From the sequence record MK327941.1: 64,000 bases of DNA; one strand, given 5' to 3'. Every line of letters begins with the position of its first letter. Positions within the stretch are counted from its first letter, which is position 1. The notes under the pieces are model-generated. The model did no database searches, had not been told where the DNA came from, and saw only the letters and a list, made by a program, of their open reading frames with translations. Source of the DNA: Escherichia phage vB_EcoM_G37-3. Shown here in pieces: positions 38,472-47,300 of the stretch. Both the position numbers and the translations under genes were made by a program.

Positions 38472-38488
38472 TATACACTATTGCGTTA
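38461..38488 (-). promoter_or_regulatory. early promoter cassette
   Basis: TTGACA, 16-nt spacer, TATAAT. Confidence 0.5.
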
Positions 38489-39709
38489 CGCTGTCAACTC
38501 TTTTTCAAAAGATTTTACGATATACATGATGGTGCTCAATTCGGACGGCGCTACTGTCTCTGTGTAGCCATCCGGCATATCTTCTTTCGAGATATAGGAA
38601 GTTTTACCTTTCATTGCTTCCTTGATTTTGTTCTCTAATTCTAAGATCTTTTGACCGTCTTGTAAAGTCAATTCATAAAAGATCTCATGATCGAACTTTG
38701 AAACACGAGATTGGTTTCTCATGCGCTCATGTGTTTCTTTGTTTGTTATTCCAAATTTCACGCCAACAAAGGAATCATTGTTGGTTAATTTCTGTATATA
38801 AAGAGTTCCTGTCTTTAATGCCTGATAACCATGCTTAGAACACAACGGGCAGCGTGTTCCGCGATTAACAAAATTATCAATAGTTACATCCCATTCATGG
38901 TTACGTTCGCATGTCAGAAGTATTCTTGTTAATGCACCTTTCCACTTTCCTGAAATCCCAATAAATTTTAGTCTGTTGGTTTCGCATATTTTTTTAATTT
39001 GTTTTAATCGGTCACTTTTTGTTATTGGTGCTGTTCCGCTACATTTGCGACACCGACGACCTAGTTTGAACTTATCATAACTTTGTTCGTAAATGTGATT
39101 ATTAGGACACTCAAATTTAAGTTTAGTTTTTGTTCCTCTCCATTCCCCAATTATACCCAAAAATTTATAATCTCCTTTATTTTCATTTATATAAGATAAG
39201 GAATCTTCTTTATCATGCATCTTGCCCCCGTTACATAAAGGACATCTTGTTTTTTGATGAATGAAATCTGTATATGTTGGTTGGTATGTGTGTCCGTTTG
39301 TACAGTTCATAATGAGTCTTGTTCTGCTATTTTTATACTCCCCACCAACAAAACCAACAAATACATCGTTTGTTTCTTGTTTTATTCTTTCTATCACATT
39401 GTTTGGGTTTAATCTTTGAGAATCAACCACACATTTCTTACACGAAACTTTTTTCCTGATATTTGCTAGAGTTGATGTGTATTCATGCTTGTTATTACAT
39501 AATATAAGAGCTTTTGTTTTGAGACCAGACCATTCTCCAACAAACCCCATGAAAGAATAACCAACTTCCAAACATGAATTTTTTACAACATTTTCCCAAT
39601 AGAAGGGAGTTTTCGTGTTTCCTTTTATTTCTATACGAATCTCGTGTGCTTGACGTACCAACATATTTTTATCCTCCGTTGTTTCGATGATTGTATTATA
39701 CATTACCAC
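38486..39709 (-). CDS. protein with four tandem Cys-containing repeats and C-terminal GIY-YIG / T5orf172-like domain (407 aa)
   Basis: four roughly 45-aa repeats (FxGxxGEWxGxKTK...CxNxHxY, CPLC / CRKC) then LYIQKL...VKFGITNK...DGYTETV. Confidence 0.55.
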   Translation of the reverse strand: MVMYNTIIETTEDKNMLVRQAHEIRIEIKGNTKTPFYWENVVKNSCLEVGYSFMGFVGEWSGLKTKALILCNNKHEYTSTLANIRKKVSCKKCVVDSQRLNPNNVIERIKQETNDVFVGFVGGEYKNSRTRLIMNCTNGHTYQPTYTDFIHQKTRCPLCNGGKMHDKEDSLSYINENKGDYKFLGIIGEWRGTKTKLKFECPNNHIYEQSYDKFKLGRRCRKCSGTAPITKSDRLKQIKKICETNRLKFIGISGKWKGALTRILLTCERNHEWDVTIDNFVNRGTRCPLCSKHGYQALKTGTLYIQKLTNNDSFVGVKFGITNKETHERMRNQSRVSKFDHEIFYELTLQDGQKILELENKIKEAMKGKTSYISKEDMPDGYTETVAPSELSTIMYIVKSFEKELTA

Positions 39710-39783: not shown

Positions 39784-40758
39784 TTACATCCCTAACAGAG
39801 CGTCAAGATCATCCAGATCAGAAGCGGAGGAAGTACCGCCACCCAGGTCCAGAGATGCCATCAGATCATCAGCGGAAGAATCTAACGCCGTGCTAGCTGC
39901 GTTAATACCAACTACAGTGCTAACCGCGTTAATACCAGCATCGAATGCATTCATCTGTGCGTCAAAATCGTCAAGCTGGCTGTTAATCGCTGCCGCAGCA
40001 CTGGAAGCCGCAGCACCAGCTACCATAGACACACCCATAGTTTTCTTAAATTTGGTTTCCAGTTCATCGAACGGTTTAAACTGGCTAGGCGCTACAATCT
40101 CACTCAGGTCAACCATGTTTTCCATCAGATATTTCTGATATGCTTCGTCTTCAATTTTCGGAAGCTGTGATTGCTGCATGAAACGAGAATCATCATAGTT
40201 CTGGTGTTTATCAACCTTCTTAGCTTTCAGGAGGAAGTTAGCACCGGAGAACACACAAGTTACATCTACCGGAACTTCGCCCATATCGGTATTCACGTTC
40301 ACCATTGCAACGATCTTATCATAAATTTTCTGACCGAAGCGGAATTTGAATACCTTACCTTCATTTTCTGGTGCTTGAGGATCTTTCAGTACCAGAATAT
40401 TTGCGTAGTAAGAGGCTTTACGCTTAATCAGTTGCCATTCGGTTTTATCGGTATTGTACAGGTCTTTTTCGTTAATATATTTGCACACAGGGCAAGAATC
40501 AAAATCACCGTGGGTGCTTGAGCAGTTTTCCCAATACCATTTACCATTAACTTTGAAGGAATGGTTTACCAGTTTCACAATCGGCAGACCGTCTTCTGTC
40601 TTAGACGGCAGGAAGCGAATCAGGGCTTCACCGTTACCTGCTGCATCAGTCTTAATCTTCCACTCTTTCGGATCTTCTTTGGAGAAACCGTTGCCACCTT
40701 TCAGTGCGGCCAGTTGAGCTTGCAGTTTGGAAGAATCTTGGCGTTTAAACATATTCAC
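39784..40758 (-). CDS. 32: single-stranded DNA-binding protein gp32
   Basis: 324 aa; [19 protein letters not shown] zinc site, acidic C-terminus. Confidence 0.9.
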
Positions 40759-40788: not shown

Positions 40789-40816
40789 ATTATACAGATT
40801 TAAATTTACTTGTCAA
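40789..40816 (-). promoter_or_regulatory. sigma70-type promoter upstream of gene 32
   Basis: TTGACA, 16-nt spacer, TATAAT about 35 nt upstream of ATG. Confidence 0.5.
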
Positions 40817-41493
40817 CTATTTGTTTCGGCTTTTAATTGAGATATTTCTTTACACTCTTTAACTACTTTAACAAATAATGCTCTTGCTTTTGCGGCGTCA
40901 ATAACAAGTAGTTTCTTGTACGCCTTCATTTTAACACTATAAGTTTGCCAAATCAAGTCTTTGGCTACCTTGTCGTGTTCGTCGATTATATTTAGAAAGC
41001 TATCTAACAACATAAACGACTCAAACGATATAATCCGATTTTGCAGTAGTTTAAAGATACCGCTAGTTTCGGTTGCGGGATTGTATGTAATTAGCTCTTT
41101 AAGAGTAACCCCGCGTTTCTCTGAGAAGTATACCAGACTTTTAATGTCATCGTCAAATCGTGTTGCTGCATCGGTTATCTTTCCTATGTATTCCATATAA
41201 AAGCCGTATGCGTCAACATCAGTGATTTCACCTACCCATGCATCGGTATTAGCTACCAGATTGCTTAGGAATAGGAAGTATAATTCTCTTAGATTGTACT
41301 TTTCCGCTAATTTTGCGAAATAATACTTATCTCTGCGTTTATTGAATGCGGCATCAGACAACCGCATCCTCCAATTGTATTTTACGCAATCATAACGCCC
41401 GTTCATGTGAGCTTTCATCATGCAATATAACATATACACAGATTTAGCATTAATTCGCATATCTGGATCTGGAGGAAGACGGTTTCTGATCAT
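40813..41493 (-). CDS. 59: helicase loader gp59
   Basis: 226 aa; aligns with T4 gp59 (YKLYLMIK..HMNGKYD, ISFESF.LLDSFLNIID). Confidence 0.85.
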   Translation of the reverse strand: MIRNRLPPDPDMRINAKSVYMLYCMMKAHMNGRYDCVKYNWRMRLSDAAFNKRRDKYYFAKLAEKYNLRELYFLFLSNLVANTDAWVGEITDVDAYGFYMEYIGKITDAATRFDDDIKSLVYFSEKRGVTLKELITYNPATETSGIFKLLQNRIISFESFMLLDSFLNIIDEHDKVAKDLIWQTYSVKMKAYKKLLVIDAAKARALFVKVVKECKEISQLKAETNS

Positions 41494-41502
41494 ACATACC
41501 CC

Positions 41503-41772
41503 TTAAATATCGAGAGTGTTTGTCGGTTCGTCGATCACTCCCTTCCTGAGCGTTCTATTTACTATACATTCTTGTGTGATCTTGTCAATAATGGACACTG
41601 GAATATATTTCTGATAGTGACCATATTCGATAGAGTTTTCCTCTACAAACTGCGTTGTCGCTTCAAGATAAGTCAATCCATCTTCAACAACCAGTTTTTC
41701 GATTGCAAGACCGTTTGCTGTTTTATTCGCGGCTTTTACCGCATGTTCATTAAGCATTGAACACCCGATCAT
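41503..41772 (-). CDS. 33: late transcription co-activator gp33
   Basis: 89 aa; YLEATTQFVEENSI matches T4 gp33. Confidence 0.7.
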   Translation of the reverse strand: MIGCSMLNEHAVKAANKTANGLAIEKLVVEDGLTYLEATTQFVEENSIEYGHYQKYIPVSIIDKITQECIVNRTLRKGVIDEPTNTLDI

Positions 41773-42025
41773 AGAGTTCTACCGCTTCGTCGCGTTCTGC
41801 TTCGAAGGTTTCGCGCTGTTGCTGGTGATACAGTTTAAACAGAATGCCCCACATTTTACCATCTACGCCTAATTCTTCTTTAGCACGCTGTTTGATCTCT
41901 TTGATCTTATCGCCATATGCTTCTTGAATGGTTTTCTGATCGCTGGCTTCTTTAATCAGTTGTGCCAGGGTATTTCCGTGTACATTTTCATCGAATACTA
42001 CTTTTTCTTTTTTCTGTTCAGTCAT
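41750..42025 (-). CDS. dsbA: dsDNA-binding protein DsbA-like
   Basis: 91 aa; size and position between 33 and rnh. Confidence 0.55.
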   Translation of the reverse strand: MTEQKKEKVVFDENVHGNTLAQLIKEASDQKTIQEAYGDKIKEIKQRAKEELGVDGKMWGILFKLYHQQQRETFEAERDEAVELYDRVFNA

Positions 42026-42030
42026 AATAT

Positions 42031-42627
42031 TTAACCCTCTTTCGTCATTAATTGAAAACCACGTTCAGCTTTTGAGATTTCGCTAGGACTTAAATCGTCA
42101 CCCACATATTCTAGCATCATTTCTCGGATAATGTCAAGTGCTTTTTCATCACCTGATTTTAACTCGAACTCAAGTTCATAGTGAGCGTCTCCCATTACTT
42201 CGCCGACTTTGCAATAATAGAAAGTGTCTTTGCACATTTCCACTATAGCACCCTCAAGGTCAAGTGTCAATGACTTGCGGTATGTCATGACTTGCAGTAA
42301 AGGAACGATAAGGTCGGAGTTTACGCCTAGACTATCAACATAGTGATAGAAATCATCCATTGTTGAAAAAGTAATTTCTTCTCGGTTGAAGAGTCCAGAT
42401 TCACTATCACCTATTTTGACCATGATCAATGATCTATTAACGTCAAGTCGAGCATAAATTCCTTTTCGACGCAGTGCATGATCTTCGGTATCATAATAAA
42501 ATTCGTGTTTTAGAGTGTTAGCACGATCTACTAGATTGCACCCGTCATACATTGCCACCCACAAATCACAGATGGTTTCGACGCCAATTTGTGAGTGTGC
42601 ATAGTATTTTAATTCAAGTTCTTTCAT
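42031..42627 (-). CDS. CYTH-like (triphosphate tunnel metalloenzyme) domain protein (198 aa)
   Basis: N-terminal ELELK (ExExK) and C-terminal ELEFELK acidic motifs. Confidence 0.45.
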   Translation of the reverse strand: MKELELKYYAHSQIGVETICDLWVAMYDGCNLVDRANTLKHEFYYDTEDHALRRKGIYARLDVNRSLIMVKIGDSESGLFNREEITFSTMDDFYHYVDSLGVNSDLIVPLLQVMTYRKSLTLDLEGAIVEMCKDTFYYCKVGEVMGDAHYELEFELKSGDEKALDIIREMMLEYVGDDLSPSEISKAERGFQLMTKEG

Positions 42628-42637
42628 CTGTCAACCC

Positions 42638-43585
42638 TTAGAACTCACCAATTTTCTGCAACATTTTAACTAACGCATTTGTTACAAAATAGTTATAAAT
42701 TTTACCGCGTGGTGCTGGTTTAGATTTCTCCCATGCTAACAAAATTTCATATTCGATGTTATCGGGAATAAATTCAAAATCAATAAGTTCGCGGTTTTCG
42801 TCAAAGCGTCGTGCTTCTTCCTCTGTCATCAAAGACTTTGGATCTTCGGCATCGAAAATTTGCTCTAACCATTTGGTTGCAATTGGTTTAGCTCGTTCTC
42901 CTTCAAGTCGTGAGATAATGAAATCACTACGGCACTTGATCGAAGCTACACCGTCTTTTGCGTCACCCTTAACACATTTTACCATAAGGTCTTTGTAAGG
43001 GCTACCATATTTGCATTTCTTCCATGCTTTCTGTACTGGCGCCCACTGTTTCACGTTTTTGTATTTGTGCAACTGTGTGTAGTCACCATCGCCGGAGTTG
43101 ATTAGCACCTGACGACCTTCTACAGAAAACTTTTTAGTTAATACAGCGATTATATCATCCGCTTCAACTTTGTCAACCTTAATAACGTGATAAGGCATGT
43201 TCTCTTTAAACTCTTCGGTGATCTTATTGATCGCAGCAAAGATCATCTCCCAATCACGCGGATCTGCGTCTCGTTTTTCCTTACGGTTGCGTTTATAGTA
43301 AGGGGCGATATCACGTCGCCAGTAACCTTTACTTGAATCAAAGGCAAGTACCGTAATAGGGTATTGCTCTTTGAATTTTGTCATATTATAACGCATGGTG
43401 TCAAGGATAAGATGACGGATCATGCCTTCATTAATAGGATCTTCCGGTTTAAAGGTATGCGAGATAGTAGCAATCATAAGCTGCGACATATCAATCAAAT
43501 GCACACCTTCCGGCAGTTTATCTTCTGGATCATCGAAGAAATCATTAAGTGTAGCGGTAGTTTTTGTAAACGGGTTATACGTCAT
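42638..43585 (-). CDS. rnh: RNase H / 5-prime-3-prime exonuclease
   Basis: 315 aa; aligns with T4 RNase H (GYWRRD, SGDGDYTQLHKY, PRGKIY). Confidence 0.85.
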   Translation of the reverse strand: MTYNPFTKTTATLNDFFDDPEDKLPEGVHLIDMSQLMIATISHTFKPEDPINEGMIRHLILDTMRYNMTKFKEQYPITVLAFDSSKGYWRRDIAPYYKRNRKEKRDADPRDWEMIFAAINKITEEFKENMPYHVIKVDKVEADDIIAVLTKKFSVEGRQVLINSGDGDYTQLHKYKNVKQWAPVQKAWKKCKYGSPYKDLMVKCVKGDAKDGVASIKCRSDFIISRLEGERAKPIATKWLEQIFDAEDPKSLMTEEEARRFDENRELIDFEFIPDNIEYEILLAWEKSKPAPRGKIYNYFVTNALVKMLQKIGEF

Positions 43586-43587
43586 AA

Positions 43588-43773
43588 TTAAGTTCTCTCC
43601 ACTCTCACAACAACATATTCGCCAAACGAGTTAGATACTTCACGATCATACCCGTATTTCTCCATAACTCGCAGAATTGCATTGTTTAGTTCTGCGCGAA
43701 AATAATTATAATCCTTATCAGGTATTCTGTCAACTATCCATTTTGCACCGTCTGACAAATCAAATTTAACCAT
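43588..43773 (-). CDS. hypothetical protein (61 aa)
   Basis: ORF, coupled to rnh. Confidence 0.5.
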   Translation of the reverse strand: MVKFDLSDGAKWIVDRIPDKDYNYFRAELNNAILRVMEKYGYDREVSNSFGEYVVVRVERT

Positions 43774-43779
43774 AATATA

Positions 43780-44361
43780 TCATCCTCTTTTTGGAAAATT
43801 TAAATAAGCATACTCGCCAACTATTTCATGTGCTGCACGGTCATAAGCCTTAGCCGCCTCAACTTCTGTCTCAAAGTATCCTAGATGTATATTCTTTCGA
43901 TTGATAACAATATACGCCTTCCACGGCTTTTTCTTGCTTGGTGATAATGATACACCTTTATATTTGCTATGGCAAGCCTTTTTCTTTGAGACGTTAAACT
44001 GATTTTGCTGTTCGGTTGCTTCTCTCATGTTTGACGGTCTATTGTTAGTTTTGTCTTGGTCTATGTGATCTATTCGTTCAACCTGAGTACCATACTCTAA
44101 AAACCAGACAACTCTATGTACAAACAGATTAAGTTTATGACCATTGTTGTAAAATGTAAAGTATAAATATCCTTCTTTATGGAGACATACCCTTACCACA
44201 TCACCTTTTTTGTATATGGACCCTTCTTTTCGGAATCCAGCAGCTACAGAATCCTTTAAATGGTATAATATTCCATCGACATGATAGAATCTACCTTTTA
44301 TCGCTTTCTGTGTCTCGATATCCCAAAATTTTGTTTTTGCCACAACAAACACCTCACACAA
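43780..44361 (-). CDS. HNH + AP2-domain homing endonuclease (193 aa)
   Basis: IDHIDQDKTNN (HNH) and YKGVS...HLGYFETEVEAAKAYD (AP2-like); paralog of 32691..33230. Confidence 0.7.
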   Translation of the reverse strand: MCEVFVVAKTKFWDIETQKAIKGRFYHVDGILYHLKDSVAAGFRKEGSIYKKGDVVRVCLHKEGYLYFTFYNNGHKLNLFVHRVVWFLEYGTQVERIDHIDQDKTNNRPSNMREATEQQNQFNVSKKKACHSKYKGVSLSPSKKKPWKAYIVINRKNIHLGYFETEVEAAKAYDRAAHEIVGEYAYLNFPKRG

Positions 44362-44395
44362 TAAATAATTTCATATTATAACAGGAGACCCAATA

Positions 44396-47300
44396 ATGGC
44401 AGATTTTTCTCAACATTTCAAGGCCACCTTTGGCTTTGACGCTGGTAATGAAAAGGTCGTCAATGTAGCATACGCAGATAAAAACACATCAACGGATGCG
44501 GTCAACGTTGAATTTTTCAATTACCATAATGGTATTACTCAGTATGACACAACTCGCGGTTATGATCAATACGGAACTACAATCTATCAAAACCGTCCGT
44601 ATTATGCAAAAGAAGATATCACAAAGCCAGCGGGTGATTTTGACCCGACGAAATGGCAAGCACTGCGCAACGATCCACGTTGGGATTATATTGCAGCAAC
44701 TTCCGGTGATACTCCTTTAAAGTCTGGTGATTATATCGCAGCAGATGGTCAATTTGCAAACTTGACTTTCTCTATGCCAAACAAACCAGCAGAGGGAGAC
44801 ACTATAACAGTAAAAGATATCGGTGGCAAGTGTGGTGTTAACGAATTATCGTTCTTGAGTTCAGGGCATGAGTTTTACCATAACGGTAATGTGTATAACC
44901 GAAAATGGTATTGCACTACCCCGTATGCAATGAACTATTTCATCTTTGTTCGTAATCGTTGGCATGTTTATCAGACAGGAACAGAGCCACGCGGTGTGTA
45001 CGCACAGCCAGCGATTGATGCTATTCAAATGCAGAATGGTGATCAGGTATTTCGTCGTAGTTCGTTGGGTAATATTACCTTAGTGCTTCCTAAGTTTGCC
45101 AACAATGGCGACATGATCCAGACTACAGATCTTGACGGGTTAACCGCAACCAACCACGTTACGGTTAAAGTTCATGAGCACGCAGAAGAACAATCAATTG
45201 GCACGTCCGGTCTAAAAGAGATTATCGGTAAGCGTAGCGGTCATGGTGTATTCATATTTGACAAACCGGAAAACTTATGGCGTTTGTGGGATGGTGATCA
45301 GTCTGTTCGCTTGAATCCTATCATTAGTGATACTCGCTTATCCCCTAATAGCTATGTTGCAGTATTTGGTGATCGTGATGTTGCCTTGACTTTACCGACC
45401 AATGTCGAGCCGGGTGATCGCATTCAAGTTTCTATGCAGTATATGCACGGAAACCAGACTTGCCGAATCATTACCTCAGAAGAGGATACAAAAATCCTTA
45501 TGCAGAAAAACATGGTTCAGTTTCCTAAGCGTAGCGAGTACCCATTCAATGGGACCGATACATGGACGGGAGTATCTGAATTGTCTTTCAACGCTGCAAA
45601 TGATTATGTACCTTATCTGGAGTTCTCTTATTCAGAAGGTGATGATGGTAAGAAATACTGGTTGGTGGCACATGCTCACCCGATTGTAGAACGAGTAGAT
45701 CCGACTCGTAAAGATCGTGTTGGTGTAATTGCACTGGCTACCCAGGATGAAACAAACAAAAACCATGAAGATAATCCTAGCGACGAAGTTGCGGTGACTC
45801 CAAAGGTTCTGGCTAACAAAACAGCCAACGAAACTCGACGCGGTATTGCTCGCATTGCGACTCAAGCGGAAACGCATCAAGATACTGGTTCCAGCTTCCT
45901 GGATGATGTTATCGTTACGCCTAAAAAGTTAAATGATTGTGTTGCTACCGAAGCCCGTCGTGGTGTAATGGAAATTGCAACTCAACATGAAACCAACGAA
46001 GGTTTAGACGATACTCGCGCAATAACTCCTAAGAAGTTAGAAGAACGTCGCGCTTCCGAAGATCTCGCTGGTATTGCTGAAATTGTTCAGGTTGGCGGTA
46101 GTGCTGCCACTCGACGTGGCGAAGCTGGTACAGGGATCTATAACATCAACGACCATGCTAAAATTGTTACGCCACAAAACATCAACGAAGTCAAGGCGAC
46201 CGAAACTTCCCGTGGTGTTGGCTATCTGGCAACTGACGCGGAAGTGCAAGGGGCTACAGAATCAACCCCGCAAGATGCTTTACTAATCACGACTCGCACG
46301 CTAACGAAGCGTACTGCTACAGAATCGCGTACTGGTATCGCTGAAATTGCAACTCAGGAAGAAACAAACTTAGGTCAAAGTGATAACCATATCATCACGC
46401 CTAAAAAGCTGCATACTCGCCGCGCAACGGAAACTTTACACGGTTTAGCAGAAATTGCAACTCAGTCGGAATTTGACGCAGGTCGTGACGATGCTCGCAT
46501 TTCTACCCCATTGAAGATTAAAACCTTCTTTGAGAATGCACAGCGTTTGAAAGTAGATCCGACTCAGGGGCTTAACCTTACGGGTGACTTGTGGCAAGGT
46601 ATCACGATCAGCGGTCTTGATGCAACCGAAGACACAAAAGGTGTCGCTAAAGTTGCTACTACTCAGCTTACGGATGTTGGTCAAGATGATACTACAATCA
46701 TCACGCCTAAAAAGCTGCAAGGCAAAAAAGCCACCGAAGGTAAAGAAGGTATTATCCGCGTTGGTACTCAAGCCGAAACCGTGGCTGGTACACTGGCTAA
46801 TGTAGCAATTTCTCCGAAGAACTTCAAATATGTTGTTCAGACAGAGGATACATGGAAAGCAACCGAAGCTCGTCGTGGATTCTTGAAAGTTGCTACTCAG
46901 GAAAACTGTTTTGTTGGTGATAATCTGCAAGGTTCTACTCAAGAACTAGGAAACTACCAGCATGACGGAATTGCTGTTACCCCTAAAGGATTAAACTACG
47001 CACTTGCTAATTTCTTACCTAAGATGGCAACTGCCCAGAATAGTTTGAAATTGGGTAACGTAGATGCCGCTAAATGGGCGCGTAGAGACATTGACCAGAC
47101 CATTGAGAGCAATTACACGTTTAATAAAAACGTTAACGTGAAGGGCGATTTAGAGTGCTTAAAATCAGGTTCCTTTGAAACTCTGTTTGTGACTAAGAAC
47201 TCGACTGATGATCCGAGTAATGGTCATCTGGTGTTGGGTGAGCGTGGAGTTGACGGTCACACCGGAATTACTCTGCATGGCACAACCGCATCGGAAGGCA

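Follow-up and report, generated by a model that had tools for sequence, protein, structure and literature searches.

The 198-codon open reading frame that separates dsbA from rnh in the window (the whole 64,000-nt stretch of DNA that was analysed) is a real gene rather than a chance reading frame, and its product is, on the strength of profile matches and a structural model, a member of the triphosphate tunnel superfamily for which an eight-stranded antiparallel β-barrel is predicted. By sequence and by modelled structure the YgiF-type bacterial tripolyphosphatases appear as its closest branch, and both lines of evidence make it probable that the protein is a stand-alone YgiF-like CYTH triphosphate tunnel metalloenzyme acting as a two-metal hydrolase. 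It is an accessory gene already catalogued, whose family assignment has been public since 2003-2006, and the novelty is therefore low; the useful additions made here are its placement on the YgiF-like hydrolase branch, the rejection of the cyclase label, an Arg-to-Asp change in the tunnel and the mosaic pattern of its alleles.

Gene, neighbourhood and annotation history

A reading made from the sequence alone had placed a 198-aa frame between dsbA and rnh and had stated that T4 carries no gene there. Both statements are confirmed: the frame opens with ATG and runs on the minus strand, which had been left unstated, and in T4 (NC_000866) the 8 nt between dsbA and rnh are empty. The frame belongs to a block in the order gp32-gp59-gp33-dsbA-CYTH ORF-rnh, all on the minus strand, as follows:

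39784-40758, minus strand: gp32 (Pfam and PHROGs)
40813-41493, minus strand: gp59 (Pfam and PHROGs)
41503-41772, minus strand: gp33 (Pfam and PHROGs)
41750..42025, minus strand: dsbA, late-transcription dsDNA-binding protein, the downstream neighbour (Pfam Phage_DsbA, E 5e-22)
42031..42627, minus strand: CYTH / triphosphate tunnel metalloenzyme gene, 198 aa, orthologue of RB49ORF244c
42635..42639, minus strand: AAGGG ribosome-binding site of the CYTH gene, by direct reading of the sequence, overlapping the rnh stop codon
42638..43585, minus strand: rnh, T4-type RNase H / 5'-3' exonuclease, the upstream neighbour (Pfam RNaseH_C, E 2.6e-37, and 5_3_exonuc_N)

Beyond rnh the minus-strand block continues with a 61-aa ORF and then a homing endonuclease ORF with HNH_3 and AP2 domains (43780-44361, minus strand), after which gene 34 comes next on the plus strand. 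The endonuclease ORF is a mobile element inserted near the mosaic region described below; RB49 has only a 74-nt spacer at this site, and other Krischvirus genomes vary. On the opposite side of the block, a 407-aa ORF upstream of gene 32 (38486-39709, minus strand) contains four CapR-homology / treble-clef zinc-finger repeats (Pfam CapR, E 1e-29) and matches RB49ORF239c in position, its counterpart in phage Skers being labelled a GIY-YIG nuclease. The dsbA and gp33 frames overlap by 23 nt (41750-41772), likewise in T4 and RB49.

The CYTH ORF is full length in 58 of 58 matching phage records, its pairwise dN/dS ranges from 0.07 to 0.34 and its GC content (38.9%) is like that of the window (40.1%), from which we conclude that it is a real gene. 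Recent horizontal acquisition was also considered and was rejected for want of a compositional anomaly. The gene is tightly packed, with 10 nt between it and rnh on its upstream side and 5 nt between it and dsbA on its downstream side, and this spacing suggests co-transcription with rnh, dsbA, 33, 59 and 32, that is, with replication and late-transcription genes. Two promoter-like sites at the CYTH gene also matched the sigma-70 consensus:

42108..42137, minus strand: putative sigma-70-like site, TTGACA-18-TAGAAT (TG-extended)
42606-42634, minus strand: promoter-like match, TTGACA-17-TAAAAT, straddling the CYTH start codon

The first of these sites falls within the 3'-terminal part of the CYTH gene, some 85-110 nt ahead of dsbA, and may be a dsbA promoter embedded in the CYTH coding sequence; a distant locus (L015, about 480-520) has a perfect TTGACA-17-TATAAT at the equivalent place despite a different encoded peptide. 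As regards the second, the TTGACA placed 2-8 nt before the CYTH ATG is conserved even in distant loci (L010, L015 and L016) with otherwise different upstream DNA; a transcript from this putative site would begin inside the CYTH ORF. The region 41400-44450 as a whole holds 18 sigma-70-like matches against 9.8 +/- 3.0 expected, and a T4-type late promoter, TATAAATA, was sought near the CYTH gene and not found.

The window phage is a Krischvirus (RB49-like), a 2.3-kb region being 96-98% identical to 58 Krischvirus genomes that include RB49, JSE, Phi1, ELT4 and FL15. The CYTH protein is 99% identical to RB49ORF244c (AAL87844.1), with which it shares its length and its position between rnh and dsbA; two residues differ (C30 for Y30, L122 for I122), and the window has the HNH-AP2 endonuclease two genes upstream of the CYTH gene, which RB49 lacks. 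The GenBank note of AAL87844.1 reads 'similar to P45267, P30871, HI1598, ygiF', and RB49ORF244c was listed among novel ORFs with a CYTH domain match of 0.0026 (Nolan et al. 2006, PMC1524935). Most orthologue records are labelled 'hypothetical protein', those of PHB13, AV108 and KMB43 give 'adenylate cyclase' as the product and Makalu phage records give 'inorganic triphosphatase', while PHROGs returns only PHROG 14893, of 'unknown function'. Literature searches on phage CYTH function, on RB49 together with ygiF and on CYTH in anti-phage defence or counter-defence yielded no functional study.

Fold, family branch and active-site residues

The sequence-only reading had assigned the protein to the CYTH-type triphosphate tunnel enzymes and had proposed a Pfam CYTH search and a prediction of the eight-strand tunnel as checks; Pfam, an HMM of bacterial relatives, an AlphaFold2 model and Foldseek all support the assignment. 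Pfam CYTH (PF01928) scores 27.1 bits against a gathering cut-off of 23.2 (E 4.2e-6, residues 42-190), and a precomputed PF01928 match exists for most cluster representatives. When 1.84 billion representatives were searched with a profile built from 20 family members, 215 proteins were retrieved at E<=1e-3, only three of them at about 1e-30 or better; the remaining matches are stand-alone proteins of ~200 aa or proteins of ~500 aa. Seven of the eight bacterial representatives tested with Pfam are bona fide CYTH proteins, one of them also with a CHAD domain, and the eighth, P0049, returned AAA-type domains only. P0049 (462 aa) has an N-terminal region resembling the phage enzyme fused to an AAA_28 / kinase-like domain, an arrangement reminiscent of plant kinase-TTM fusions. 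An HMM built from 146 bacterial CYTH or CYTH-CHAD representatives plus YgiF (147 sequences) matches the window protein end to end with 117 bits and an E-value of 1.7e-37, which is not fully independent because the phage profile had served to recruit these relatives; the Pfam and fold searches are independent of that recruitment.

The AlphaFold2 model (pLDDT 92.4, pTM 0.86) comprises eight long strands (residues 2-10, 31-46, 57-62, 67-76, 79-87, 108-123, 127-140 and 148-159), three interspersed helices and a C-terminal helix predicted at 186-194. Foldseek against the PDB places E. coli YgiF at the top (E 1.9e-12, TM 0.77), and all the matches ranked after it are tunnel enzymes too. The NCBIfam and PADLOC profile libraries gave no match to the protein, and Pfam found no CHAD domain within its 198 residues; many of the bacterial relatives are likewise stand-alone proteins of ~200 aa.

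Residues were mapped on YgiF and the 147 relatives with three alignments, including a profile alignment and MAFFT --add, for 46 phage-clade sequences, and their roles were taken from the structures and mutagenesis of YgiF and AtTTM3 (PMC4641920). The mapped elements are the following:

42607..42621, minus strand: codons 3-7, E-L-E-L-K, the N-terminal ExExK, invariant in the 46 phage-clade sequences; E3 and E5 correspond to YgiF E4 and E6 (metal-2 acidic patch) and K7 to YgiF K8 (ExExK lysine)
42442..42456, minus strand: codons 58-62, Y-A-R-L-D, from the profile and MAFFT --add alignments and a spacing test; R60 corresponds to YgiF R56 (catalytic Arg) and D62 to YgiF R58 (place of the second Arg)
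42415..42417, minus strand: codon 71; K71 corresponds to YgiF K69, which binds substrate and orients the first Glu (PMC4641920)
42376..42384, minus strand: codons 82-84, R-E-E; R82 and E84 are the counterparts of YgiF R81 and E83 (conserved tunnel residues), do not vary within the phage clade and reach 97-98% conservation among bacterial relatives
42157..42177, minus strand: codons 151-157, E-L-E-F-E-L-K, from alignments to YgiF and relatives; E153 corresponds to YgiF E160 (metal-1 ligand) and E155 to YgiF E162 (metal-2 ligand; roles from PMC4641920 and PMC8233210)
42058..42075, minus strand: codons 185-190, S-K-A-E-R-G, start of the C-terminal helix, a motif in common with YgiF-type proteins (SKAARG in YgiF)

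Two of these elements had been recognised by the sequence-only reading and are indeed present, namely the MKELELKYY start with its ExExK (E3-x-E5-x-K7) and the second motif ELEFELK near the C-terminus (residues 151-157, within YELEFELKSG at 150-159). In the SKAERG motif, K is conserved in 99% and R in 88% of bacterial relatives. Altogether, 21 positions strongly conserved in the 147 YgiF-like relatives (E3, E5, K7, Y44, D46, R60, K71, G78, R82, E84, R117, E130, D134, E151, E153, E155, G159, S185, K186, R189 and G190) are kept in >=96% of the 46 phage-clade sequences; most of them do not vary at all, and the conservation extends to alleles with no more than 32-58% overall identity. Across these divergent alleles the invariant residues fall on alternate positions of every strand, as would be expected for a working tunnel enzyme.

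The exception is the position of YgiF R58, which is Arg in 143 of the 147 relatives (97%), while 98% of the phage clade have Asp62. In AtTTM3, catalysis does not require the equivalent second Arg (PMC4641920), and Asp62 consequently does not argue against activity. The phage clade departs from the bacterial consensus at other barrel positions too: Tyr58, two residues before the catalytic Arg, stands where 129 of the 147 relatives have A, S, G or T; Lys40 replaces a Leu (YgiF Leu36); Phe136 replaces a Gly (YgiF Gly145, Gly in 77% of bacteria); and Cys132 and His149 are further departures on barrel strands. The changes at Asp62, Phe136 and Lys40 mean that activity and substrate could differ from those of YgiF. 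An alternative register, obtained with single-sequence and phage-profile HMMER alignments, sets Tyr58 opposite YgiF Arg56 and, if right, would point to an active site that is dead or unusual; it was rejected on spacing. Between the YxDT motif and the catalytic Arg (T43 to R56 in YgiF), 133 of 134 relatives have a distance of 13 residues, as does the phage protein from T47 to R60. The hairpin that follows the catalytic Arg ranges in length from 9 to 21 residues within the family. The register with R60 as the catalytic Arg is thus preferred on the basis of the 13-residue spacing, the variable hairpin and the agreement of two independent alignments.

Distribution and allelic mosaic

The arrangement rnh-CYTH-dsbA or CYTH-dsbA recurs in every locus examined, down to 32-37% identity. 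All close relatives adjoin dsbA in T4-like contigs; P0043, P0044, P0045 and P0192 all lie directly upstream of dsbA-gp33, and rnh adjoins where the contig extends. The loci of P0044 and P0045, reached by a second protein search and contig look-ups, are short T4-like contigs, and a scan of IMG/VR, JGI metagenome contigs and GTDB genomes for these two proteins gave no extra loci. Because this position is conserved in every relative, we conclude that the phage CYTH clade is specific to, and old within, a T4-like phage lineage. The locus identities show that the CYTH protein diverges much faster than its neighbours:

Skers: CYTH 58%; dsbA 100%, gp33 93%
L010: CYTH 44%; dsbA 78%, gp33 79%
L014-L016: CYTH 32-37%; dsbA 65-78%, gp33 67-75%

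Within Krischvirus, this divergence is concentrated in one part of the gene:

42184..42600, minus strand: mosaic, fast-diverging core, codons 10-148, in comparison with L001, L004, L005 and L006

DNA identity in the core is 70-88% for Phi1, JK32 and ECD7 and 41-60% for Skers, against mostly 95-100% for the flanking rnh, dsbA and gp33 among Krischvirus and 83-100% for the last 50 codons of the CYTH gene itself. The dS of core codons 10-148 goes from 0.4 to saturation at a dN/dS of 0.18-0.34. Positive selection as the source of the variable core was discarded on these values, since low dN/dS combined with very high dS points to exchange of old alleles. The pattern thus indicates that recombination at the conserved ends of the gene has exchanged old alleles, which are held under purifying selection. 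Nearby, codons ~265-285 of rnh (42731-42791) contain a 60-nt patch in two allelic forms, EFIPDNIEYEILLAW and DYIPDDIQNQILESW, with 58-68% identity inside a gene otherwise 95-100% identical; the form of the patch does not track the CYTH allele group.

Proposed reaction, alternative readings and related systems

We infer the catalytic activity, the substrate, the expression timing and the biological role of the CYTH enzyme. In the two-metal mechanism that we propose, a complex of triphosphate with Mg2+ or Mn2+ would sit in the centre of the eight-stranded barrel, held by R60, K71, R82, R117, K157 and K186/R189. E153 would complete metal site 1, and E3, E5 and E155 would hold the second metal, which would activate a water for attack on the terminal phosphate, with R60 helping the leaving group. 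Hydrolysis of this kind would release orthophosphate and a diphosphate compound, and hence not a cyclic nucleotide. Inorganic triphosphate (PPPi) or a small organic triphosphate is the most likely substrate. The charge reversal at Asp62, together with Tyr58, suggests a pocket unlike that of the strictly PPPi-specific YgiF, so that the substrate may not be plain triphosphate. W/YxRxR marks thiamine triphosphatases, the aromatic residue stacking on the substrate ring (PMC8233210), and the Krischvirus proteins have Y-x-R-x-D at this site; it is tempting to speculate that their substrate may carry an aromatic or cationic group instead of being bare PPPi. This lead is a weak one because the most distant clade members, P0044 and P0045, have Val or Ile in place of Tyr58.

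The sequence-only reading had named the class IV adenylate cyclase / thiamine triphosphatase family, of which the CYTH superfamily holds and the cyclase very probably does not. A CyaB-type enzyme making cAMP to manipulate host CRP signalling is hardly credible, in spite of the label carried by several GenBank records. According to Vogt et al. 2021 (PMC8233210), class IV cyclases are distinguished by an HF motif four residues before ExExK (HFxxxxExExK), by a small residue where RxR has its first Arg, and by an Ala that replaces the second Glu of ExE. All three determinants are absent here: no HF motif precedes ExExK in the phage protein, where it is in fact impossible because ExExK starts at residue 3, and both the first Arg (R60) and the second Glu (E155) are kept and invariant. 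Class IV cyclases also rank far below YgiF in the structural comparison, and many CYTH 'adenylate cyclase' annotations have been described as historical carry-over (PMC3440374, PMC8233210). Several Krischvirus records are thus most likely mislabelled as 'adenylate cyclase'. The neighbouring RNase H brings to mind an RNA 5'-triphosphatase acting on pppRNA, either on the pppApC primers that RNase H removes or on mRNA, where cleavage of host or phage 5' ends would trigger 5'-end-dependent decay. We regard this as very unlikely, given that the nearest relatives in structure and sequence are small-molecule tripolyphosphatases and not Cet1-like enzymes, and that adjacency in a T4-type genome is weak evidence when T4 manages without the CYTH gene. 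The change of a near-invariant tunnel Arg to Asp, and the existence of non-enzymatic tunnel folds such as Mediator Med18/20 and RESC proteins, found among the fold matches, could instead speak for a triphosphate or nucleotide binder, a sponge or regulator that has kept the fold without catalysis. Both metal sites and the catalytic Arg are nonetheless invariant across alleles down to 32% identity, the pattern expected of an active enzyme, which leaves the binder a most improbable reading.

The triphosphatase that we favour could in principle serve counter-defence, hydrolysing a triphosphate-bearing immune product, with the mosaic diversity as the trace of an arms race; candidate substrates are dITP, the messenger of Kongming, and PPPi set free by defensive dGTPases. 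Triphosphorylated immune nucleotides do exist, namely dITP (bioRxiv 10.1101/2024.12.20.629578) and p3diT (PMC12265719), and Kongming dITP is triggered by a dNMP kinase that T4-like phages carry. Moreover, the CYTH gene is accessory, lineage-restricted, far faster diverging than its neighbours and a recombination hot spot, and its remodelled pocket (Tyr58, Asp62 and Phe136) suggests a substrate other than PPPi. Against these points, the protein matches no defence-related profile and no literature link was found; the dN/dS of 0.18-0.34 speaks for old alleles recombined and not for positive selection; Tyr58 gives way to Val or Ile in P0044 and P0045; the Kongming paper contains no Krischvirus data; and hydrolysis of p3diT would help the host, not the phage (PMC12265719). 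On balance, we consider such a counter-defence function unlikely. It is similarly doubtful that the remodelled YgiF-like hydrolase, with Tyr58, Asp62, Phe136 and Lys40, represents a new counter-defence or metabolic-rescue factor; on that proposal, the allelic mosaic of its core would be kept by selection from different hosts. If an immune nucleotide, or a by-product of nucleotide-depleting defence, did turn out to be the substrate, the protein would represent a new enzyme class in phage counter-defence. As matters stand, the correct annotation of a gene with a ~20-year-old public family assignment, small and non-essential in the T4-type architecture, changes little; what our analysis provides is a residue-level hypothesis of the active site, including a charge-reversed tunnel position that separates the phage clade from YgiF.

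Among the known systems, YgiF (PDB 5A60/5A61) is an E. coli inorganic triphosphatase of 433 aa combining CYTH and CHAD domains, whereas the phage protein has 198 aa and no CHAD; R58, G54, G145 and L36 of YgiF are replaced by Asp62, Tyr58, Phe136 and Lys40, and the β3-β4 hairpin is two residues shorter in the phage protein. The mammalian 25-kDa thiamine triphosphatase, with W/YxRxR in contrast to the YxRxD of the phage protein, is a far more distant structural neighbour than YgiF. CyaB of Yersinia pestis (2FJT/3N0Y) is the opposite of the phage protein at all three class IV determinants given above, and the Cet1-like RNA 5'-triphosphatases are not its closest branch. The CYTH proteins of other phages (Aeh1ORF004c and those of Aeromonas phages 65.2 and D3) have the CYTH domain in common with it but are not close relatives, and the CYTH triphosphatases of jumbo phages, the CYTH proteins of giant viruses and the triphosphatases of capping enzymes, again not close relatives, illustrate that the CYTH domain recurs in viruses.
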